This document shows positions 6,268 through 43,226 of a DNA stretch of 56,145 nt, one piece after another (the first letter of the stretch is position 1; each line of letters begins with the position of its first letter). Origin of the DNA: a phage. The stretch lies in the sequence record PZ386950.1; one strand, 5' to 3'. The translations under genes were made by a program, and so were the position numbers. The notes below the pieces were generated by a model that worked only from the letters and a program-made list of their open reading frames with translations, had not been told where the DNA came from and did not search any database.

Positions 6268-6593
6268 AAATACGACCCCACAATTGCTGCACAGTTGACG
6301 ATCGCTAAACGCGTTGCTTTTTCACGGTCTTCTCCGTGGCTAACTGGTTGCTTATAACTAACGCCAGTGTCAGGGTTATTAACCGTCACTTCGTTGTCAC
6401 GAATATCCAGATCCATGTACATGTTAACCATCAGACTGAAAGCATCCTCATTACGTGTAAGAGGGTTCCACAGGCGACCGTTGCCTATATCAATACCTTC
6501 GTTTATGTAACGTTCGTCGTACGCGACGTAATATTTACCATGGATTTCAGCAGCCCGTGCTGCGTTGACTAATAAATCACGATTGTTCATCAT
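6264..6593 (-). CDS. hypothetical protein
   Basis: 109-aa ORF, 4-nt overlaps with both neighbours. Confidence 0.5.
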   Translation of the reverse strand: MMNNRDLLVNAARAAEIHGKYYVAYDERYINEGIDIGNGRLWNPLTRNEDAFSLMVNMYMDLDIRDNEVTVNNPDTGVSYKQPVSHGEDREKATRLAIVNCAAIVGSYL

Positions 6594-6949
6594 ACCCGTC
6601 CTGTTGTACGTTTATATTCTTGAACACAGTAATCAAAGTATTCACCATATGTTTTAACATAATTAATTAGTTCAATTATTACGTCACCGTGGCATGGTTT
6701 AGGGGAACAGAAACAAACTAAATCTTTACCATCTAATGATAAAATATCAGATTTAGTTATGTTTCCTTTCAAACATTCATTCCATAACCATGTTTTATAA
6801 CGAAATAATGTCGCACCTCGTTCTTCATTTTCCGAAAGTTTAAAAGGGTTTGCGAATTTACTTTGTGTTAACCCTTTACCACCGCGACCGATATAAACAG
6901 CACCTTCTGGGATTTGTTTACCAATACGATAGAAGTTTAACACTCTCAT
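6590..6949 (-). CDS. DUF4326-like protein
   Basis: track ORF trimmed to ATG at 6949 (MRVLNFY...); motifs FANPF and CFCSPKPCHGD recalled as DUF4326 hallmarks. Confidence 0.45.
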   Translation of the reverse strand: MRVLNFYRIGKQIPEGAVYIGRGGKGLTQSKFANPFKLSENEERGATLFRYKTWLWNECLKGNITKSDILSLDGKDLVCFCSPKPCHGDVIIELINYVKTYGEYFDYCVQEYKRTTGRV

Positions 6950-6950
6950 G

Positions 6951-7455
6951 TTACATGTTCCCCGTTGATCCAAACCCGCCATTACGCTGACTATCAACAT
7001 CTGGTAATTCTTCCACTTCAACCAGGTTAACAGGTTCGACACGTTCAACCATGAGCTGACAAACACGTTCACCGTCTGCGATAGTCTGTAATTTCTGCCC
7101 GTGGTTAGTCAGCGTAACGTAGTATTCTTCTTTGTAATCACGATCACCGATACCCACACAGTTGATTAGTGACAAACCGTGTTTAAGACTCATGCCGGAA
7201 CGTGGATAGAATTTAATGCAATATCCGCTATCAACTGACATTTTCAGACCAGTGGGGATCATAGCGCGGTCGCCGGGCCATAATGCGATTGTTCCTGCAA
7301 CAACCGGACGTTCCACTTTAGCGCCTGATTCTGTGAATATAGTTACCGATTCTTCCCACAGACAAGCACGAACGTCTAACCCTGCGCTGTCTGGTGTTGC
7401 CCGTGTCGGAAGTTCAGCGTGGGGTGTTAGTTTTTTTGATATACAGGTTAGTCAT
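6951..7455 (-). pseudogene. dut: dUTP diphosphatase interrupted by frameshift in A7 run
   Basis: all five dUTPase motifs present (AGLDVRA, PRSG, GIGDRDY, RVCQLMV, GGFGSTG); motif 1 lies upstream of the track ORF in a frame with no start codon; ATG at 7455 with RBS GAGGAA is in the +1 frame and joins after the A7 run at 7431-7437. Confidence 0.75.
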
Positions 7456-7489
7456 TGTTTGATTCCTCAGTGTGTTTCGTTCGTGACAA

Positions 7490-7562: not shown

Positions 7563-8222
7563 ATGATGTTTGAACATCCGTGGAACATACCTGCATATGA
7601 TGCTGAAAGTGAAAAACAATCACTTGACTATCGAATGTACGCACCAATTTTAAGAAATCCGTCACAAATTATGGAGAATGCTGATGACTTTGAAATCTTT
7701 GAAAAACGCCCTTGTGGTCCAGCAACACCTGTCAAAACAAAACTGTTAATGACACCGAAAGCCCGTGGTAATACTTACGAAGAATTCATTGCGACCGGGT
7801 GGAATGACGACCAGTTAGTCGAACATGGTTATGCTGTTCGTACTACAGACAAACGTTCCTGGTCACCAATGACCGTCGGAACTGAAACAATTACACCACC
7901 TTCAAACTGTCGGTGCACATTCACCCCTGTTCAACAACCATCAACAGCGTCTGACTTGCTGAAACAGGCTGAACAGCTACTGACAGAACGTGGTAAGCAG
8001 TATGACACGTCTGGTCAGGAACGTTCGTCAGCTAAAATCGTTGCTGCGTTTAACACAATTACCGGGCGCGACTTAACACCGGGTGAAGGGTGGTTGTTCC
8101 TGATGTTGTTAAAAGCGGTTCGTTTCTATTCCAACACTGAAACACCACATCGTGACAGTCTGGAAGACCTGATCAGCTATGCTGCATTACACGCAGAGGA
8201 ATATCTTAACGATGAACGGTGA
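7563..8222 (+). CDS. hypothetical protein with conserved 35-aa module and all-alpha C-terminal domain
   Basis: track ORF trimmed to ATG 7563 (RBS tgaggaa); contains TYEEFIATGWNDDQLVEHGYAV module shared with the SSB-like protein. Confidence 0.5.
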   Translation: MMFEHPWNIPAYDAESEKQSLDYRMYAPILRNPSQIMENADDFEIFEKRPCGPATPVKTKLLMTPKARGNTYEEFIATGWNDDQLVEHGYAVRTTDKRSWSPMTVGTETITPPSNCRCTFTPVQQPSTASDLLKQAEQLLTERGKQYDTSGQERSSAKIVAAFNTITGRDLTPGEGWLFLMLLKAVRFYSNTETPHRDSLEDLISYAALHAEEYLNDER

Positions 8223-33379: not shown

Positions 33380-35236
33380 TTACCGAAGTGGTGCAACGAG
33401 TTTTTCAGCTTCTTTGATGTAAAAATCATAATTGAGTGTTGCCCGGTTAAAACGTTTCATGTCGTTACACTCAGTGGTCAACCAACCTTTACACACTGAC
33501 ATGCGGCGTTCAGGCGCATCAGGGTTCAGTTTCAGTGATTTTGCCAGCGGTGGCATGACTTTTGTTAATGGTGCACCATCTGTGCTGACATAATAACGGG
33601 TAATGTTCTGAACCTGTTTGTCACCCCATAGTAATTTGCTATTACGCGGTACTTTCGTCACCAACATAAAATCGTGAATGTCTTCGTGTGATGTTATAAA
33701 ATCACGAATGTCTTTATTGTGTACCAGTGCTGCTTCAGCCGCTTTTGCAACAACCTGCATACTGTGGTTTTGATGCCAACCCAGATCAACACTGTGGCAA
33801 TAAGCACCTTTACGTTTAACCTTCTTACCACCTTCATAAACAGCGATGTAGTTATTTACATCGCGGATAAACATCACGTCATAAATCGCTTCTTCAAGCT
33901 GGAGTCTGGTTAATTTTTCCCACGCGTGACGAACCTGTTCTACTTGTTCGGTAAACACTCGTGGCACGTAAACCGTAAGACCATCTGTGTTAGCCTGGAT
34001 CATGGACAAACCAGGGATTTTCAGAAGTTCTTCAGCCAACATGCACAAAAGTAACTGTCCATTAATCGTAATAGCCATTGTATAAGCAGGATCGTAGAAC
34101 GGGCTGTATACGTTATTACTGTCGCCATACACACCGTTTAACGCCAGTTTTAACATTGCATTTTCTGGTGTACCTTTCGGGTAACTGGAACGCATGTCAT
34201 AAACATTTTTATAAATGGTGCAAAATTGTTTTCCCAAATGTGCAGGGTAAAGTTCATTACTAATCGCAAGGTTTGGATAAAAACTGGCAACGTCCAGATC
34301 GATGATCACATAATTTTCAGTGGACCTGATAGTTTGAGATTCAATAGACCCGTGGATACCACCCGTACCAAAATCAAACGAGAACCCGTTAATGTCTGCG
34401 CTTAAATCAGTAAACACACCTTTTGTTTCAGTGATGACCTGTTGACGTAACCAGTTAAGAACACGATTAAATTCAGGCTGTTCAAAACGAACATAAGGGA
34501 AAATCACACTGTTCAATGCGATTGATGGTCTGTGCGTCTGCCGTGGTTTTCTGCTACCCGGTTCGAAACATTGAATACCTGATTTTTTAAGTTCCATGAT
34601 GAAATAGTCTTTACCGATTTTCGTGTCGTTATGGTTCATGAAATTACGACCGTATTTAGCAGAAAGTTCACGACGAAAATCGATCAGCTTTTTACTGTGT
34701 TTATAAAACATCAAAGTCGCTTTTAAATCGTGTATCAGATATTGACGAAGCGTATCAATTTGAGAATCGGTTAAATAAGTCCCTGGGGTAAACGGAAGGT
34801 CTTCAATGTTTTCCATTCTCATGTTGAACTCAAGTGTTTTCAGACTTGTTCGTTTTGCCTGGTTGTCGAAATGATGAATTTTATACAAATCAAGTTGGGG
34901 AACTATCCAGTCTTTTTCCCACACCATATGAGCAAAACGATTTTCATCACCAGCGTTAATTATCGAATCACCTTTTTTGTAAATGTCTGCGTTGGTGATA
35001 TACATGATGTTGTTCAAAATAGAATGCTGAACAGGATAGTCGTAACCTAGATTGTTATAACCAACTTCTTCAGCACGATGTTCACGCAAATATTCTGTGA
35101 ACAGGTAAAAAGCCTGACGATCGTCGCGACGATGTGAAATCTCAAAAATATAAGGTGTTTCAGTTAATGCGTGAATAGCACCGAACAGGAAAACATTAGG
35201 ATAATTTTCAATATCGTGAATGTAAGCATCTGACAT
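33380..35236 (-). CDS. family B DNA polymerase (compact, with 3'-5' exonuclease motifs)
   Basis: Exo I HDIEN, Exo II YNNLGYDYP, Exo III YLIHD; polymerase motif A DLDVASFYPN, motif B KLALNGVYG, motif C ANTDG. Confidence 0.75.
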   Translation of the reverse strand: MSDAYIHDIENYPNVFLFGAIHALTETPYIFEISHRRDDRQAFYLFTEYLREHRAEEVGYNNLGYDYPVQHSILNNIMYITNADIYKKGDSIINAGDENRFAHMVWEKDWIVPQLDLYKIHHFDNQAKRTSLKTLEFNMRMENIEDLPFTPGTYLTDSQIDTLRQYLIHDLKATLMFYKHSKKLIDFRRELSAKYGRNFMNHNDTKIGKDYFIMELKKSGIQCFEPGSRKPRQTHRPSIALNSVIFPYVRFEQPEFNRVLNWLRQQVITETKGVFTDLSADINGFSFDFGTGGIHGSIESQTIRSTENYVIIDLDVASFYPNLAISNELYPAHLGKQFCTIYKNVYDMRSSYPKGTPENAMLKLALNGVYGDSNNVYSPFYDPAYTMAITINGQLLLCMLAEELLKIPGLSMIQANTDGLTVYVPRVFTEQVEQVRHAWEKLTRLQLEEAIYDVMFIRDVNNYIAVYEGGKKVKRKGAYCHSVDLGWHQNHSMQVVAKAAEAALVHNKDIRDFITSHEDIHDFMLVTKVPRNSKLLWGDKQVQNITRYYVSTDGAPLTKVMPPLAKSLKLNPDAPERRMSVCKGWLTTECNDMKRFNRATLNYDFYIKEAEKLVAPLR

Positions 35237-35316: not shown

Positions 35317-36300
35317 TCAGTAACCGTTACCGTTGAGAAAATTCGGGGCCGGGGTGGTCATTACCATATAACCGTTAGCGATCAGTTGTTCATCATTCCA
35401 ACCTTGCGCAATAAACTGTTCGTAAGTAGCACCACCTGCTTTTTCAGTCATTACCTTCACAGGCGTTGCTACAGGTGCTGCCGCTGGTGTAGGCGTTGCT
35501 ACAGGTGCTGCCGCTGCTACAGGCGCTGCTACAGGTGCTGCCGCTGGTGTAGGCGCTGCTACAGGTGCTGCCGCTGGTGTAGGCGCTGCTACAGGTGCTG
35601 CCGCTGGTGTAGGCGCTGCTACAGGTGCTGCCGCTGGTGTAGGCGCTGCTACAGGTGCTGCCGCTGGTGTAGGCGCTGCTACAGGTGCTGCCGCTGGTGT
35701 TACGCCGATCGGACGTGCACCTTCAGGCATTGCAGGAGCAGCACCGAACACAGATGCAGGAGCCGGACCAGAAATAATTTCTTCACCTGCATAAAGCAAT
35801 TGCGCCATTTCCATGTTGATATACACACCGGCCTGGTTACCTGTACGACCGTTTGCAACAGATGATCCGCTGATACGGTAGTAATAACCTTTTTTCGCCA
35901 GATTTTTATCAATAACTGGCTGGTACGCTGCGTTATAAACCGGACACGCGTCAATAGCCACGTTGCGTGAGAAACCAATTACCCAGTGACCAGCATAACC
36001 AGTTTTACTCGCATGTTTCGGATCGTCACCGTTAATAATTTTCCATGCGAAAGTGGGTTGTTGTGGTTCGCCGTTCACATAGTGTGAGTTAGCCGCTCGC
36101 ATGATGGCCTGGAACACCGCACCCAGTTCACCTTGTTCTTCCCACCAGTTCGCCGCTGTTTTAGGAAACGCCAGACCAACCCACCAGTTATGTTTTTCAG
36201 GTGCTAACGGTTTATTTTCGTGGTCATGGGTGTTGATATCGAAAAAAGAACCGCCAACCAGACGACCAACCGGAGTTACAAAAGATTCTTTCTGTGCCAT
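35317..36300 (-). CDS. putative ssDNA-binding protein (DUF2815/gp2.5-like) with P/A-rich repeat linker
   Basis: position between DUF2800 nuclease and polymerase genes; strong RBS AAGAAGG; long PTPAAAPVAA repeats; C-terminal conserved module. Confidence 0.45.
   Translation of the reverse strand: MAQKESFVTPVGRLVGGSFFDINTHDHENKPLAPEKHNWWVGLAFPKTAANWWEEQGELGAVFQAIMRAANSHYVNGEPQQPTFAWKIINGDDPKHASKTGYAGHWVIGFSRNVAIDACPVYNAAYQPVIDKNLAKKGYYYRISGSSVANGRTGNQAGVYINMEMAQLLYAGEEIISGPAPASVFGAAPAMPEGARPIGVTPAAAPVAAPTPAAAPVAAPTPAAAPVAAPTPAAAPVAAPTPAAAPVAAPTPAAAPVAAPVAAAAPVATPTPAAAPVATPVKVMTEKAGGATYEQFIAQGWNDEQLIANGYMVMTTPAPNFLNGNGY
35461..35700 (-). repeat. 30-bp coding tandem repeat (about 8 copies)
   Basis: aggcgYtgctacaggtgctgccgctggtgt repeated nearly perfectly. 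Confidence 0.9.
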
Positions 36301-36315
36301 GTTATTAACCTTCTT

Positions 36316-37461
36316 TTAAAGTGGACGTGCGCCAGTCGGCATCGTCACGGGTTTATTAAAAACAGATTCTGCCAGTGTGCTGTGACCTTTACGCGGGTCA
36401 CTGTCAGGTACTAAAACTGGCTGACCTTCTGGTTTTGTCGTACACATGTCAACAAGTGCCGGAGGCAGTGATTTTTCCAGTGTTGACAATGGTTTTAATT
36501 TACGTTCGTACAATGTTTCAGGGTTTACACCAAACATTGGTGCAGCACCGATCAGTTTTCCTTCGTCCGTAAGCTGACGTCGGGTTTGTTTTGTTGCAAG
36601 TTTAAAACCCGGTAAAGCCTTACCCATGCGAACAAAATGTAACCCCTGAGTATGTAACGCTGTTTTTGCTTCAGAAGAACGCGTATACAGTTCTTCAAGA
36701 AGTGCCAGACGACGCGCTACTTCTTCTGGTGTAAGTGATGGTGGTGCGTCAAGAACAGTAGCCAATTCTAAAACCCTCTCATACATTGCCGGACACATAC
36801 CACGCGCCGGACAGTAATGACAATGACTACCAACATTTAACGGTGCGTCTGGTTTATGTGCTTCGTTAAACCCGTGTTTAAATCGTTCAGCCCATTCCAT
36901 CAATGTTGCCCGGTTAAACTCCCATCGTCTTACAGGTCCGAGTGGGTGATAAGCCCGTGGCTGAACAATTGTGAACACAACGCGCTTAACAGTGTCGATG
37001 CAACGTTGGTCCAGTGCATAATAGACCCCCTGTGAGTTATCAACTGCGTCAACTGCAACATGACCGTATTTATAATCCCATACATAAAGCGTATCAGTAT
37101 TAAAGTCATACCAGCGATAATCACAGGTTCCGTACTGACCGGGTAACAACCAGTCAATGTGAATGCGAACTTCTGAAAACAGCGGATCAAGTTTCGCACC
37201 AACTGAAAGAACATCTGCTATAAAGTCATCCGCGTAAATGTGCATGTCTTCAGTAACCTGAACACCGTTAGGAGCAATACACGGCATTAATGGCGGTTTA
37301 CCTTTAATCTTCTGTTCTAACACCCAGTGCCCGGCTGTACCTTCTTCAGCACTGGGTGATGATGGTTCTACATAATCAATCCGCTGTGACAGTTGAACGC
37401 TACCAGGACAAGCTAACCAACGTTTTGATCCACTGGCACTAAAGGTAGCGTGACTTGTCAT
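36316..37461 (-). CDS. PD-(D/E)xK nuclease, DUF2800 / Cas4-like
   Basis: N-terminal FSASGSKRWLACPG and C-terminal Cys cluster CHYCPARGMCPA. Confidence 0.7.
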   Translation of the reverse strand: MTSHATFSASGSKRWLACPGSVQLSQRIDYVEPSSPSAEEGTAGHWVLEQKIKGKPPLMPCIAPNGVQVTEDMHIYADDFIADVLSVGAKLDPLFSEVRIHIDWLLPGQYGTCDYRWYDFNTDTLYVWDYKYGHVAVDAVDNSQGVYYALDQRCIDTVKRVVFTIVQPRAYHPLGPVRRWEFNRATLMEWAERFKHGFNEAHKPDAPLNVGSHCHYCPARGMCPAMYERVLELATVLDAPPSLTPEEVARRLALLEELYTRSSEAKTALHTQGLHFVRMGKALPGFKLATKQTRRQLTDEGKLIGAAPMFGVNPETLYERKLKPLSTLEKSLPPALVDMCTTKPEGQPVLVPDSDPRKGHSTLAESVFNKPVTMPTGARPL

Positions 37462-38231
37462 CAGAATGTCCCACCCATTTGTTTAACAGATTCAGCCTGA
37501 CCAACAATGTTTTCAGCATCAGCCGGGGCCGCGTTAATGCGTTCAATCAGTTCGATGATAGATTTCAGTTTTACCGGGTCGTCAATCTGCATCACGTTCT
37601 GAGTTTCATACAGCCCCATGATTCGCTGACTTAATGGCGCAGCACGGTCACCCGTAATTTGTCCAAACATCTGCATCAGTGCTGACTGAAGAACCTGTGT
37701 GTTATAAACTTTAGCCGGATCCGTGGTTACAGGTTGCTCGACAGGCGCGACTGGTGCAGCCGGTGCTGCTGGTACAACTGGAGCTACCGGAGCGGCAGGA
37801 ACCGCTGGAGCAGGATCAACAGGTGCTACATAACCCGGTGCAAGTTCTGCAGGTCCGGTATAACGCCCTGCTTCAACTGCTTCAGCGATAAGTTCACGTT
37901 TAACACCGTCAACAAACGCTTCATCCAGTTTTTTCTTCTGACGCCACAGACCGTCACCTTTGTTCAGGGATTTACTGTCAGTGTGGATACGCGGATCATG
38001 ACGCAAACCCCATTTGTCGAACTCTTCAGTGCTGGTTTCGTTATCGTCAACATCTTCAGTTGGTGCAGATACAACAGGCAGTGATTCAGCAACGACAGTT
38101 ACCGTTTCTTTAGTGATACCATCACCCTGAGCAGTCATGAGTGGTGCAGCACCAGTCGCAATAGCATTTGCCAGATTGTTGATCGCAGTTTCCAGACCCG
38201 GAGCAGTTACAAGTAATTTAACTTCGAACAT
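37461..38231 (-). CDS. hypothetical P/A-rich protein, first gene of replication operon
   Basis: 256 aa with PAAPVAPV-type low-complexity linker. Confidence 0.5.
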   Translation of the reverse strand: MFEVKLLVTAPGLETAINNLANAIATGAAPLMTAQGDGITKETVTVVAESLPVVSAPTEDVDDNETSTEEFDKWGLRHDPRIHTDSKSLNKGDGLWRQKKKLDEAFVDGVKRELIAEAVEAGRYTGPAELAPGYVAPVDPAPAVPAAPVAPVVPAAPAAPVAPVEQPVTTDPAKVYNTQVLQSALMQMFGQITGDRAAPLSQRIMGLYETQNVMQIDDPVKLKSIIELIERINAAPADAENIVGQAESVKQMGGTF

Positions 38232-38401: not shown

Positions 38402-40063
38402 ATGAAAGCTCGTTATTATCAGACTGAAGCTATCAATAACGTATGTCAGGCATGGTCAAGCGGTGCTGACGACGTGATTCTTGTGCTTCCCACGGGGGCA
38501 GGAAAAACGTTCTGTATGTCTGAACTGGTAAAAACAAGAGACGGTGTAAAAGTCATCCAGGCGCACCGTAAAGAACTGGTTAGTCAAATCGCAATGGCTG
38601 TTGCTCGCCAGGGGTTAGCACACAGATTTATAGCGCAAAAAGATACTGTTAAGTTTGCAACTAATCAGCAGATGAAAACGCTTGGTTACAGTACCTATTC
38701 CCCCGGTGCTGACATCGTTATTACCAGTTCACAAACGTTAAGAACAAAACAGTACGAACGATGGTACAACGACGTGTCTCTTGTATTCAGCGACGAAGCG
38801 CATCACCTGGTGCGTGGCACACAGTGGGGAGACTGCCGGGAAAAATTCCCTAACGCTAAAGGTCTGGGTGTTACAGCTACACCGATCCGTGCTGACGGTA
38901 AAGGCTTGGGTCGTCATGCGTCAGGTTACGCAGATCAGATGATCATCGGTCCATCAATGCGTGAGTTAATCAGCCAACAACACCTGGCTGATTATCGCCT
39001 GATCATGGCTGAAACAGACCTGGAATTAACTGCAGAAATGATTTCCCATACTACGGGTGATTACAAACCCTCTGCGTTAAAAAAAGCGATGGAAGATTCA
39101 AACATCGTTGGTGATACCGTCAGTACGTGGAAAACGTATGCAGATGGTTTACTCACCGTTGTGTTTACGTGTGATGTGGATTCTGCTGAAGCACTTGCAA
39201 AAGAATTTCGCGATGCTGGTATTCCTGCAGAGGCGATCAGTTCACGAAACAGTAATCAGGAACGAGCGGATATTCTGGAACGTTTTGAACGACGTAAAAC
39301 ACTCGTGCTATGTAACAACGATTTATTCGGTGAAGGATACGACTGTCCGGCAATGGAATGTGCTGTAATGGACCGTCCAACAGAATCTTACTCTTTGTTT
39401 GTACAACAAATGGGTCGACCATTGCGTTTCAAACCGGGTAAAAAAGCACTGATTATTGATAAAGTCGGTAATGTTCGTCGATTTCTGGCCCGTGGTTTTC
39501 CACTTCCTGATCAGCATTACAACTGGTCTTTAGATGACCGTGACCGTCGTTCATCTAACAGCAGTGGGAACAGTAATACAACATGTACAAACAAGGGTGA
39601 TCCTGATAACGGTATTCCACCGTGTCTGAAGCCTTATCCGTCTGGTCTTCCGTGCTGCCCGTATTGTGGTCATGTTCCTGAAAAAGCCGAACGTTCAGGC
39701 CCGGATCGTGTAGAAGGTAATTTACGTGAACTGACACCTGAAGAACTGGAAGAATTACGCCGGGCAGTTGTGATAATCGACCGTGACCCTGTTGCGGTAA
39801 AAGAACAAATGTTAAACGCTGGTGCACCCCCTGTTGTAGCTTACAGTGCAATGAAAAACATTCAGGCAATGAACGATGCACAGCGTAAGTTACGCAGCAT
39901 GATCACCACATGGGCAGGTATTCAGCGTGATAAAGGTATACCCGTTGATGACGCTTACAAGATGTTTTACAGGGTGTTTGGTGTTGATGTACTTAGTGCA
40001 CAGGGCTTACGTACTCGTGAAGCTAACGAACTCGCCGCAAGGGTTGCAAGTTCATTAATCTGA
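38402..40063 (+). CDS. superfamily II DNA helicase
   Basis: Walker A LPTGAGKT, DEAH box FSDEAHH, helicase C-terminal region. Confidence 0.8.
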   Translation: MKARYYQTEAINNVCQAWSSGADDVILVLPTGAGKTFCMSELVKTRDGVKVIQAHRKELVSQIAMAVARQGLAHRFIAQKDTVKFATNQQMKTLGYSTYSPGADIVITSSQTLRTKQYERWYNDVSLVFSDEAHHLVRGTQWGDCREKFPNAKGLGVTATPIRADGKGLGRHASGYADQMIIGPSMRELISQQHLADYRLIMAETDLELTAEMISHTTGDYKPSALKKAMEDSNIVGDTVSTWKTYADGLLTVVFTCDVDSAEALAKEFRDAGIPAEAISSRNSNQERADILERFERRKTLVLCNNDLFGEGYDCPAMECAVMDRPTESYSLFVQQMGRPLRFKPGKKALIIDKVGNVRRFLARGFPLPDQHYNWSLDDRDRRSSNSSGNSNTTCTNKGDPDNGIPPCLKPYPSGLPCCPYCGHVPEKAERSGPDRVEGNLRELTPEELEELRRAVVIIDRDPVAVKEQMLNAGAPPVVAYSAMKNIQAMNDAQRKLRSMITTWAGIQRDKGIPVDDAYKMFYRVFGVDVLSAQGLRTREANELAARVASSLI

Positions 40064-40871: not shown

Positions 40872-43226
40872 ATGAAAGGGTTACTGAACCGTAAACAGTG
40901 GGTCATGTGGCGGCTTGAGACAGTCGCCGATCGTCCAAAACCAACGAAAGTACCATACAGTCCGGTACACGGTTACAAAGCCAGTACCACTAATCCTAAC
41001 GACTGGTCTGACTATCACACCGCGTTAGGTATGGCGCAAATGTACGGCATGTCTGGTGTTGGTTTTGTATTCACAGAAAACGACCCTTATTTCTTTATTG
41101 ATGTCGATAACTGTCTGGTAGATCAGGCAACAGCTACGTGGTCACCACTGGCGCATGAATTCGTAAACCGTTTTCCAAATGCTTACACTGAAGTCAGTCA
41201 GTCAGGAACAGGTTTGCATATAATCTGTGCTTATACCAGCATACCGGAAGGTTTTAACAGTCTGAACGACCAGAAAACCGGGCTGGAAATGTACTGGCGT
41301 GATCGTTTCGTCGCGATGACGCTCACGGGTAATGGTGATGTTGATATTGATTATACCCAGGGTATTCATGATTCTATTGCCCGGTATGGTCGCATCCGTT
41401 CAGACCGTTCCGCACGCTGGACAACAGCACCCTGTGATGACTGGTCAGGCCCGGCAGACGATGATGAACTGATTAAAATGGCGTTAAATTCGTCCAGTGC
41501 TGCTTCAGTATTTGGTAATAAAGCGTCATTTGCGGATCTGTGGAATGCAAACGTTGAACGCCTGTCTGTGTCATATCCCAGCGACCAGGGAAAAGACTAC
41601 AATGCATCTGCCGCTGATGCTGCCCTGTGCTCACACCTTGCTTTCTGGACCGGGAAAGATTGCGAACGTATTGAACGTCTATTTAACCGTTCCGGGCTGG
41701 TTCGTGGTAAATGGACAGACCGTCAGGATTACCGTGAGAATACGATTCTGGGCGCTGTGGAACGTTGCGATACTGTTTATCGTAGTCAACCGACGCTGAC
41801 ACCAGAACTGATGAAAGCAGTCACACCAGCGCCTACCATCGTTCCTAACGGTGGAACACCTGCGTACATGAGTGTGAAACCCGGTGAAGGTGCATATGGT
41901 TCAAACCACACGGTTAACGCATCCACTTTCGTTAATAACTATTATCCGAACAACACATTGATTTTCGTCCAGCAACAACCATACCGGTTCAACGGTCGCG
42001 TGTGGGAACGTGTCAGTGAAGATGAACTGAAACATCAAATTTCTATGGCAATGCTCGCCAGCGAACCAAAAGCTGACGTGATTAATGGTACGTACAAGGT
42101 TTTGTCGTATTTATTCACACGGGCTGATCGTGAGCTTGGAACATGGCCCGGCGTTGATGTATCACACTATATTGTTTGTCAGAACGGGATACTGGATGTA
42201 CACACGGGTAAATGTGATGCACATAACCCTGATTTCTTTACGACCAGTATTTTACCGTATAGCTACGATCCATTTGCTCGTGCACCAGCGTTTGAACAGT
42301 TTTTAAATACAACTCTGGAAGGTGATCAGGAACGTATTGCATTGTTGCAGGAATGGCTGGGTTACATGCTTGTCAACTCGTATGACTATCAGAAAGCGAT
42401 GCTGTTGATTGGTGCACCACGTTCCGGTAAAGGTACGATTGGTCGCATCATTCAGGCACTGGTAGGTGATGAAGCGTATGCAGGGATCACACTGGAGGGT
42501 TTAGCAAGTGATGCGGTACTTGAAACTGTGCTGGATAAATCTGTGCTATTTATCGGTGATGCTCACAGTGTGTCCGGGCCTGATCGCAACCGAATTCTGG
42601 ACCGTTTCAAATCTATTACAGGTTGTGATGCGATTCCGGTTAATCGTAAATATAAAGGTGCATGGAACGGTCGTTTACCGGGACGTATGACACTGGCTGC
42701 TAACAACATACCTGCATTTGCTGATGATTCCGGTGCAATGGCTAACCGTTTGCTGATCCTACCATTCAACATTTCGTTCCTGGGTCGTGAAGATACCACT
42801 CTGGAAGCACGACTGATGAAAGAACTACCGGGGATCTGTAACTGGGCGATTGAAGGTTTACAACGGTTACGTGCAAACGGACGGTTTACTGAACCAAAAG
42901 CAAGTCTGGAAGAACGTCAGGAAATTATGGATCAACAATCACCACTTAGAAGTTTTATCAGAGATTGTTGCGAATTGGTATCTGATGGTGAGGTGCACAC
43001 TGAAGAACTCTATGGTCGTTATCGTCTCTGGAAAACACAGGAAGGTGGTCCAGCAATGACTAAAACTGCATTTAGTCGGGCGTTTAAATCCACCCTTCGT
43101 GGTAAAGTGAAAAAAGACGTTGTTAATATAAATAACGTTCGACTAAACGGTTTCAGGGGTATTCGTCTTCTCCCTTTTCAGTCAACAGCTAATGTAGTGC
43201 CTTTCCCACCTGCGAGTAACGGTTAG
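40872..43226 (+). CDS. primase-helicase (primase-polymerase N-terminal domain plus P4/D5-type SF3 helicase)
   Basis: N-terminal SQSGTGLHIIC, C-terminal Walker A GAPRSGKGT. Confidence 0.8.
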   Translation: MKGLLNRKQWVMWRLETVADRPKPTKVPYSPVHGYKASTTNPNDWSDYHTALGMAQMYGMSGVGFVFTENDPYFFIDVDNCLVDQATATWSPLAHEFVNRFPNAYTEVSQSGTGLHIICAYTSIPEGFNSLNDQKTGLEMYWRDRFVAMTLTGNGDVDIDYTQGIHDSIARYGRIRSDRSARWTTAPCDDWSGPADDDELIKMALNSSSAASVFGNKASFADLWNANVERLSVSYPSDQGKDYNASAADAALCSHLAFWTGKDCERIERLFNRSGLVRGKWTDRQDYRENTILGAVERCDTVYRSQPTLTPELMKAVTPAPTIVPNGGTPAYMSVKPGEGAYGSNHTVNASTFVNNYYPNNTLIFVQQQPYRFNGRVWERVSEDELKHQISMAMLASEPKADVINGTYKVLSYLFTRADRELGTWPGVDVSHYIVCQNGILDVHTGKCDAHNPDFFTTSILPYSYDPFARAPAFEQFLNTTLEGDQERIALLQEWLGYMLVNSYDYQKAMLLIGAPRSGKGTIGRIIQALVGDEAYAGITLEGLASDAVLETVLDKSVLFIGDAHSVSGPDRNRILDRFKSITGCDAIPVNRKYKGAWNGRLPGRMTLAANNIPAFADDSGAMANRLLILPFNISFLGREDTTLEARLMKELPGICNWAIEGLQRLRANGRFTEPKASLEERQEIMDQQSPLRSFIRDCCELVSDGEVHTEELYGRYRLWKTQEGGPAMTKTAFSRAFKSTLRGKVKKDVVNINNVRLNGFRGIRLLPFQSTANVVPFPPASNG

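Follow-up and report, generated by a model that had tools for sequence, protein, structure and literature searches.

Why would two proteins of one phage that are otherwise unrelated carry the same segment of about 35 residues? The question is raised by the stretch of DNA analysed here (sequence record PZ386950.1, 56,145 nucleotides; hereafter the window), which belongs to a 9NA-like siphophage of the Sashavirus group and is 95-97% identical to Sashavirus BDX09P1, Escherichia phages AVIO78A, Bas82 and PDP46, and Salmonella phage Sasha. The segment, here called the module, is found in a 219-amino acid (aa) protein ending in a DUF6378 domain and in the single-strand-binding protein (SSB). It is conserved, portable, under purifying selection, predicted to fold and always accompanied by a copy on an SSB. 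The simplest reading of these sequence patterns is a protein-docking or 'address' domain centred on the SSB, acting through a contact that we infer. The features on which the comparison is built are as follows.

7563..8222, plus strand: gene of the 219-aa mosaic protein (from the N-terminus: variable part, module, linker, DUF6378 domain)
7725..7847, plus strand: module copy A, residues 55-95 of the 219-aa protein
7743..7841, plus strand: profile core of copy A, residues 61-93, LLMTPKARGNTYEEFIATGWNDDQLVEHGYAVR
35317..36300, minus strand: gene of the 327-aa Enc34/T7 gp2.5-type SSB (phrog_7011, E=2.3e-99, residues 2-314)
35353..35466, minus strand: module copy B, residues 279-316 of the SSB, with its core, KVMTEKAGGATYEQFIAQGWNDEQLIANGYMVM, at 35359..35457

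Compared as whole proteins by BLASTP, the 219-aa protein and the SSB yield a single significant segment, ungapped, with 22 of 34 residues identical and 27 of 34 positive (E=3e-12); beyond it they are unrelated, one having a C-terminal DUF6378 domain and the other an Enc34/gp2.5-type OB fold. An earlier inspection of the bare sequence (the original prediction) had proposed just such a module in two otherwise unrelated proteins, and the alignment bears it out. Its position for copy A, 7725-7847, was exact, and its 'about 35320-35440' for copy B pointed to the right region while lying some 30 bases off the true, upstream span. The two ways in which the proposal might have failed, chance similarity and low complexity, were both checked. 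A Smith-Waterman score of 133 compares with 32.2 +/- 4.6 (maximum 63) for shuffled versions of the SSB, none of 2000 of which reaches 133, and copies A and B are compositionally complex, with 18 and 15 residue types and 3.97 and 3.75 bits per residue (1.96 bits for the neighbouring Pro/Ala linker). A tblastn search of the window's six frames with both modules gave no third copy, the next best match having E=0.28.

A profile built from the two window copies and 30 metagenomic fragments was used in an exhaustive HMMER search of 1.84 billion representative proteins. This revealed a family of 1107 clusters (50% identity) at E<=1e-3, 365 of them at E<=1e-10, and many of its proteins contain two to four module copies separated by Pro/Ala linkers. 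A word-indexed protein search with the same profile yielded nothing longer than fragments (30-86 aa), most of them C-terminal ends of SSBs that had been called as small open reading frames (ORFs). The consensus of 274 distinct copies is x-[RK]-[VQT]-M-T-[AP]-[KA]-A-x-G-x-T-Y-E-x-[FYM]-I-A-x-G-W-T-D-x-x-L-[IV]-x-x-G-[YML]-M, with the highest conservation at M5 (96%), A9 (98%), G21 (96%), W22 (96%), D24 (92%) and G31 (97%). All the near-invariant positions (M5, A9, G11, G21-W22, D24, L27 and G31) and the T-Y-E start of the first helix are present in both window copies, and the Ala that replaces Met at position 33 of copy A is found in 11% of the family. The module is mildly acidic, with a mean net charge of -1.3 over the 274 copies and a positive charge in only nine of them.

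Among 50,697 phage records searched by tblastn, the module was matched at the C-terminal end of the SSBs of 9NA-like phages and also in Vibrio, Yersinia, Stenotrophomonas and other Escherichia phages. In these matches the SSB module always follows a Pro/Ala linker and often precedes a short tip (PSFA, PSFG), and Vibrio phage PS25B.1 has two copies. The isolated phages that carry it all infect Gammaproteobacteria. Pfam-A, NCBIfam and the sequences of the PDB gave no match, nor did the plasmids of PLSDB. A narrow-pattern scan of cellular genomes, one for each of 185,579 prokaryotic species, returned only two contigs, both from metagenome bins and both coding for phage-type SSBs. As far as such narrow search patterns go, the family is apparently phage-restricted. 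No description of the domain was found in the searchable literature on the module, DUF6378, DUF2815/DUF2800, Nmad1 or decapeptide repeats.

The SSB of the window, besides the module, is made up of the following parts:

35731..36300, minus strand: predicted OB-fold DNA-binding domain, residues ~1-190, with the Pfam match to residues 61-187
35461..35700, no strand assigned: eight tandem copies of a 30-bp unit (96% matches and a score of 445 in Tandem Repeats Finder)
35320..35352, minus strand: C-terminal tip PAPNFLNGNGY, 11 residues, absent from the DUF6378 protein

The match to Pfam PF10991 (Enc34_ssDNA-bd/DUF2815) scores 25.9 bits, just under the cut-off of 26, and a local iterative profile started from residues 1-195 ties the protein to clear Enc34-like members. 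The 30-bp repeat codes for a flexible Pro/Ala-rich linker, (PAAAPVAAPT)n, that joins the OB fold to the module, and it is annotated as a 'direct tandem repeat region' in the records of Sasha and Sergei. Megablast places 35461..35700 differently in close relatives, with many 'places' per record, and the number of repeats, hence the length of the linker, seems to differ between strains. The original prediction had located the module in the C-terminal tail of the SSB. It does lie in the C-terminal region, but not at the extreme end, where the 11-residue tip follows it in the place that PSFA, DDLPF or PPW occupies in other SSBs with the module. The module is thus a linker-embedded element upstream of diverse tips (PSFA, DDLPF, PPW, NGY) rather than a substitute for a tip.

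The same arrangement recurs on several kinds of SSB. An Enc34-like OB domain (Enc34/DUF2815) was recognised in 93 of the 142 best representative module proteins, and other recognised SSB types with the module are DUF669 proteins, ending in PPWAR or PPWL, and a gp2.5-like protein of phrog_112 (S144_54 of Shewanella phage 1/44). It is also found behind a Cys-rich N-terminal family (phrog_27714) and in a phrog_862 family that ends in the canonical SSB tip DDLPF or DIPF; these last two types are presumed to be SSBs from position and tail only. The module therefore accompanies at least three recognised and several unclassified SSB N-terminal domain types. In phage SSBs it usually sits within the Pro/Ala-rich linker, ahead of the tip, and numbers one to four copies. 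Enc34-like SSBs have one copy in 94 cases, two in 19 and three in 3, whereas a single copy is almost always found in other carriers. In a control set seeded with the OB fold, 59 of 74 short-type Enc34-like SSBs carry the module, and those that lack it have acidic, GW-repeat or other tails.

Two side observations concern these tails. Module-less Enc34-type SSBs from IMG/VR loci (L158-L168) often have Trp-rich tails of P-A-G-W-G-A-P units ending in TGWPNT, and an acidic example among them is DWDDGWEDEDESDDLLG. No feature of the module is more invariant than its G-W dipeptide, and an exposed Trp may be a functional element common to both. Several module proteins with unclassified N-termini (P0193, P0195, P0198, P0218, P0302 and L043:5275-6207) end in DDLPF or DIPF, and would thus combine the module with mimicry of the partner-binding tip of the host SSB.

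Could copy A be a mere relic of the SSB gene? A functionless by-product of mosaicism, in the form of a decaying SSB fragment, or plain chance was already disfavoured and is the least credible of the explanations that we considered. Its appeal lies in the high mosaicism of the N-terminal half of the DUF6378 gene and in relatives that have half a module, none, or a broken gene: the PDP46 protein has the second half only, VNDDKLAIHGYSIRT, and the Sasha gene is broken in two, its DUF6378 domain having given way to a DUF3310 ORF. Chance is excluded by the alignment statistics above. Decay is contradicted by the age of the copies, which are only 65% identical in nucleotide sequence with saturated synonymous sites and yet keep the near-invariant residues: copy A retains M, A, G, G-W, D, L and G at the corresponding family positions, and the ratio of non-synonymous to synonymous substitution rates (dN/dS) of the DUF6378-protein module is 0.05-0.18 among orthologues from Escherichia, Salmonella and Klebsiella phages. 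The DUF6378-protein copies and the SSB copies form separate orthologous lineages which, together with the saturated synonymous sites, rules out recent gene conversion between the two window copies. To judge from the saturation, the separate lineages and the dN/dS values, copy A is an old paralogue under purifying selection, neither a conversion tract nor a decaying remnant. Independent gains of the module by many other protein families also argue for a selected function.

These gains came to light when IMG/VR was scanned with the module profile and the flanking ORFs were analysed, with identities assigned by Pfam, PHROGs and alignment. Family-A DNA polymerases (DNA_pol_A) have the module inserted at two different sites (residues 601-632 in L037/L038 and 474-503 in L086), and a superfamily 2 (SF2) helicase of L039 shows a clean 39-residue insertion relative to four homologues, including the helicase of the window. 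A DUF2800 exonuclease (L124, 140.7 bits) has it at the C-terminus (residues 442-473), a GapR-like DNA-binding protein at the N-terminus, and a P27-type small terminase as an insertion. Further carriers are members of the phrog_27827/11133 family (L059, L060, L062, L078), some members of a family defined by the motif W.DSAG...KGxFKKRRG, several small unnamed proteins and S144_73 of Shewanella phage 1/44. In each of the 17 evaluable genomes with a non-SSB carrier (the 9NA-like group and Shewanella phage 1/44 among them), the module is also present on the SSB.

The repeated occurrence of the module in replication and recombination proteins of phages whose SSB also has it is the pattern expected of a shared docking element, and to this extent the earlier idea of such an element fits. 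The window encodes counterparts of several of these carriers, in a gene order (exonuclease-SSB-polymerase) that is the same in 9NA and Sasha:

33380..35236, minus strand: DNA polymerase (phrog_1252, E=1e-215), without module
36316..37461, minus strand: DUF2800 PD-(D/E)XK exonuclease (Pfam, 197 bits), without module
37461..38231, minus strand: 256-aa protein of phrog_27827, between the exonuclease and helicase genes, without module
38402..40063, plus strand: SF2 helicase (ResIII + Helicase_C), without module
40872..43226, plus strand: NrS-1-like primase-polymerase/D5-type helicase (Pfam), of a cassette-associated family

The original prediction had named the phage polymerase, the helicase and a clamp-like protein as candidate partners. 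The first two are unlikely as fixed partners, being module carriers themselves in some phages, and a Pfam scan of the window's proteins identified no clamp-like protein. The SF2 helicase is the commonest neighbour, at 52 of the 80 module-seeded loci, and no neighbouring family was singled out as tracking the module, the commonest ones (SF2 helicase, DUF2800 exonuclease, polymerase) all being occasional carriers. Since every member of the helicase/exonuclease/SSB/polymerase cassette can itself carry the module, none is a universal fixed partner, which favours either self-pairing or a hub outside the cassette.

We tentatively favour self-pairing, without regarding it as the probable answer: the module would pair with itself on an SSB scaffold to which the other carriers attach as monovalent clients. 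The SSB would be the constitutive carrier, holding one to four copies on the flexible Pro/Ala linker between OB fold and tip, and other proteins at replicating DNA would gain a single copy by domain shuffling. The client copy would then pair with the copies displayed by SSB-coated single-stranded DNA, a module-to-module contact that we infer, and in the window the DUF6378 protein would by this means be recruited to the machinery of replication and recombination. A more elaborate form of the proposal, which we consider rather doubtful, makes the module a homotypic 'sticker': SSBs on single-stranded DNA would form a multivalent scaffold, a replication compartment or condensate, with the one-copy proteins (polymerase, helicase, exonuclease, GapR-like protein, small terminase, DUF6378 protein) as its clients. 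The module would then amount to a phage-specific address system, built from a solitary unit of the repeat type found in DotG/IcmE decapeptide arrays (see below).

The chief competitor, possible if doubtful, is that the module docks on a common third protein, either a phage hub that lacks the module or a host protein such as DnaB, the beta clamp or the host SSB. The SSB and its sporadic clients would converge on this hub much as bacterial proteins with a common clamp-binding motif do. Such a hub explains portability, conservation and the rule that the SSB is always a carrier equally well, and several copies per SSB would suit an oligomeric target. By conjecture, the phage candidate would be the hexameric primase-polymerase/D5-type helicase (40872..43226), whose family (cluster 4) occurs at 20 of the 80 loci without a single carrier; the same count tells against it, as the family lies within the examined flanks of only those 20. 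Replication gene sets differ widely among carriers, and the phrog_862-type loci L021 and L043 share no cluster within 12 kb, so that a common phage hub is not evident. For a conserved host target, the restriction of isolated-phage carriers to hosts among the Gammaproteobacteria is compatible, but no host protein with the module or an obvious receptor was found, the narrow-pattern genome scan having yielded only the two contigs with phage-type SSBs. Phage T7 offers a precedent for a third-partner hub, in that one site on gp5/thioredoxin accepts the acidic tails of both gp2.5 and gp4.

Similarity between client and SSB modules within a genome might be expected to separate self-pairing from an outside hub. 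In favour of self-pairing, the client module is closest, or nearly so, to that of its own SSB in several genomes. The client module of L078 is 84% identical to that of its own SSB (foreign maximum 70%), those of L059 and L060 are 71% identical (rank 1-2) and that of L042 is 62% identical (rank 4). Several observations weigh against self-pairing on the SSB. The L037 polymerase module is no closer to its own SSB than to foreign ones (rank 62 of 90), and L022 behaves likewise. In 9NA and Carvaje the DUF6378-protein and SSB modules are identical at only 15-17 of 33 positions, and co-variation of client and SSB is therefore not general, as would be expected if both tracked a third surface. The co-occurrence with a module-bearing SSB is equally expected with a common third protein, the ORFs of the metagenomic loci were called mechanically, the predicted fold described below is of moderate confidence with ~110 module sequences behind it, and what a phage would gain by recruiting the DUF6378 protein is a guess. 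Within-genome similarity thus does not decide between self-pairing and an outside hub.

What kind of structure might make such contacts? AlphaFold2 was run on the 219-aa protein with an alignment mixing homologues of the DUF6378 protein and module fragments. Only the module is modelled with confidence (predicted local distance difference test, pLDDT, 72-78), with a strand at residues 61-63, helices at 72-77 and 82-87, and a second strand at 91-93. It is accordingly predicted to be a strand-helix-helix-strand mini-domain of ~33 residues with the G-W turn between the helices. The same protein modelled without an alignment had a pLDDT of 37 and was unusable. A Foldseek search of the PDB with the mixed-alignment model, which is confident for the module alone, returned noise (best E=1.4). 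The PDB match 8vd6, a 'CAP repeat', is a de novo designed protein and irrelevant.

A small domain of this kind might instead bind nucleic acid or a ligand, or act within its own protein, for example by folding back on the DNA-binding domain in the manner of acidic SSB tails. It would then have been added independently to DNA-handling proteins as an accessory domain that tunes DNA binding. Most identified carriers do handle DNA (SSBs, polymerase, helicase, nuclease, GapR-like protein, small terminase), and the predicted strand-helix-G-x-[T/S/N]-helix layout recalls ribbon-helix-helix domains. The topology and the G-W-[T/S/N] turn are compatible with that fold; against it stand the shorter helices, the prediction of a second strand and the negative net charge. 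The mildly acidic module argues against direct DNA binding, and Pfam gave no match to ribbon-helix-helix, helix-hairpin-helix (HhH) or other DNA-binding families. Fold-back on one particular OB fold is made unlikely by the variety of N-terminal domains that accompany the module, of at least five unrelated types, and DUF6378 is not known as a DNA binder. In favour of such a role, the acidic tail of Enc34 ORF6, a structurally studied member of the SSB family, modulates discrimination between single-stranded and double-stranded DNA; that tail is a plain acidic one, without the module (PMC5686142). On balance an accessory role of this kind is unlikely.

The origin of the fold may be traced further. 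The two helices of the module represent an internal decapeptide duplication (TYEQFIAQGW / NDEQLIANGY), each a short helix ending in Gly-aromatic. Aligned by hhalign, the module profile matches the 30-31-residue unit of P0184 over 23 columns (probability 95.5%, E=1.4e-8). P0184 is a 2733-aa repeat protein that matches Pfam PF25296 'Decapeptide repeat region' with 906 bits and Legionella DotG/IcmE with E=4e-50. In DotG-type arrays, the units that align with the helical core of the module stand head to tail, which we count in favour of the address reading. Judged by this profile alignment, the helical core is probably a distant, solitary relative of the DotG/IcmE decapeptide repeats, with which it shares decapeptide units of a short helix and Gly-aromatic. 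In contrast to those repeats, the phage modules are solitary or few and separated by Pro/Ala linkers, have an additional N-terminal x-M-T-x-K-A-x-G strand, and reside in cytoplasmic replication proteins instead of a periplasmic secretion-system component. Neither window copy matches PF25296 itself at E<=1 (family threshold 45 bits); the best sub-threshold matches reach E=1.9e-5 (sub-threshold matches in 5 of 112 carriers) and 16.5 bits. The repeat region of DotG is unresolved in structures (bioRxiv 10.1101/2025.06.23.660953), and the link therefore gives no functional clue. A weak overlapping match to the ubiquitin-associated (UBA) domain occurs only in the giant repeat protein P0184 (E=4.8e-5); the modules themselves have no UBA match, and two helices are predicted, not three.

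If the module is an address, the protein that it would address in the window is the product of 7563..8222. The gene starts with the ATG at 7563, preceded by a GAGGA ribosome-binding site five bases before, and is divergent from the dUTPase gene. Its C-terminal part is a recognised family:

7956..8198, plus strand: DUF6378 (PF19905) domain, residues 132-212 (Pfam 31.5 bits, cut-off 27.1; phrog_474, E=6.5e-24)

Besides scoring above the threshold, the domain has every invariant column of the family alignment, with the motifs ERG..YD, GERS, FN, EGW, LK.VR and H.DS.ED..YA.L. The invariant residues are rich in polar ones (R, YD, ERS, FN, EGW, K, R, H, DS, D, Y, E), and DUF6378 looks like a conserved, enzyme-like domain. 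No relative was found in the PDB with either the single sequence or a profile, hhalign of DUF6378 against one MazG-like and one DUF3310 protein gave nothing with a shallow alignment (effective number of sequences, Neff, 1.27), and the AlphaFold2 model of this part has pLDDT <50. In databases the domain is labelled 'phosphofructokinase' or 'nucleotide modification associated domain 1', both of them unverified.

The module is optional on this protein. Of 120 DUF6378-protein clusters, 65 have the full module, 18 its second half only and 37 none; it is present in the window, Bas82, AVIO78A, BDX09P1, 9NA, Carvaje and KP13-27. This patchiness among close relatives, which is common for counter-defence genes, would suit a different role, in which the DUF6378-protein copy is a decoy of the SSB C-terminal region that titrates an SSB-sensing host factor such as a defence system. 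Phage SSBs are reported to trigger defence systems such as Retron-Eco8 (PMC13402713; bioRxiv 10.1101/2025.11.11.687766). A decoy is hard to reconcile with the insertion of the module in essential enzymes (polymerase, helicase, exonuclease); in the DUF6378 protein it is still fused to a conserved enzyme-like domain, it does not stand on its own in these phages, and nothing ties it to sensing by defence systems. We regard a decoy function as very unlikely.

Upstream of the module the DUF6378 gene (window 7563..7740) is extremely mosaic, even among near-identical phages. A 33-residue segment of the Bas82 protein is missing in the window, and in the 9NA protein a partial second module (VTVTRVNDDRL) comes after a complete one; PDP46 has the partial one alone. 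The loci compared for this N-terminal half were:

L011:1504-2241, L001:2202-2834, L010:1587-2119 and L007:1382-2185

How does a docking module of this form relate to established systems? SSBs recruit partners through C-terminal tails, of which the E. coli SSB-Ct (DDDIPF), the acidic tails of T7 gp2.5 and gp4 and the A-domain of T4 gp32 are examples. The module resembles them in lying C-terminal of an OB-fold SSB beyond a flexible linker, where SSBs recruit partners, and, as with T7 gp2.5 and gp4, the same element is found on more than one replication protein of one phage. It differs in being a ~33-residue mini-domain with a hydrophobic core that is predicted to fold, rather than a short disordered acidic peptide, in being only mildly acidic and coexisting with separate tips that include the canonical DDLPF, and in its copy number of one to four and its insertion within enzymes. 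Its position, too, sets it apart from the SSB-Ct type: in the 219-aa protein it lies internally, and in the SSB 11 residues separate it from the C-terminal end.

Two further comparisons are instructive. The peripheral-subunit-binding domain of the E2 component of 2-oxo-acid dehydrogenases, with ~35 residues and two helices, docks enzymes on a multivalent scaffold. By analogy only, it too is a minimal two-helix domain flanked by flexible Ala/Pro-rich linkers; there is no sequence relationship, no match to Pfam E3_binding, and the biological context is another. Clamp-binding motifs, including the PCNA-interacting-protein (PIP) box, likewise recur as one element in polymerases, nucleases, helicases and accessory factors, a recurrence that suggests one platform. 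They are linear peptides that bind a ring-shaped clamp, however, whereas the module is predicted to be a folded domain. A docking element common to replisome proteins and placed at the SSB C-terminus is thus known already. What appears to be new is the form, an unannotated folded domain of ~33 residues present in multiple copies in the linkers of unrelated SSB types, inserted in enzymes and probably derived from the DotG-type decapeptide repeat.

Phage SSBs are thought to organise replisomes via short acidic tails, and the module points to a second solution, a widespread (>1100 protein clusters) and unannotated mini-domain of SSB linkers that is also found in polymerases, helicases, nucleases and accessory proteins. 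Were it an address tag, it would provide a sequence marker for proteins of the replication fork, including the DUF6378, phrog_27827 and W.DSAG...KGxFKKRRG families, and a handle to pull down phage replication complexes. A tag of 33 residues could also target cargo to replicating phage DNA. The same function would explain the mosaic DUF6378 gene region among 9NA-like phages and could be a first functional hint for the DotG/IcmE repeat region.

Several minor observations were made in neighbouring genes. The 256-aa protein at 37461..38231 contains the motif WGLRHDPRIH...DGLWRQKKK, and at the same gene position many phages encode a protein with D..G.PWD.RIH...DG.W.KKKG. A similar motif, W.DSAG.VW...H...KGxFKKRRG, defines another unnamed family encoded beside SSB genes.

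6951..7460, minus strand: dUTPase gene
6590..7072, minus strand: mechanically called ORF of 160 aa with a GTG start, overlapping the 3' end of the dUTPase ORF

The dUTPase gene is apparently frameshifted near its 5' end, at ~7431..7437: one frame gives a 98% alignment to residues 7-167 of the Bas82 dUTPase, and the start, MTNLYIKK, lies in another. The frame changes at a stretch of seven A (seven T on the plus strand); a sequencing error, a genuine pseudogene or programmed slippage could each account for this. The counterpart of the 6590..7072 ORF in relatives is annotated with ~108 aa and abuts the dUTPase stop codon, and the real start of this gene in the window is probably an internal ATG.

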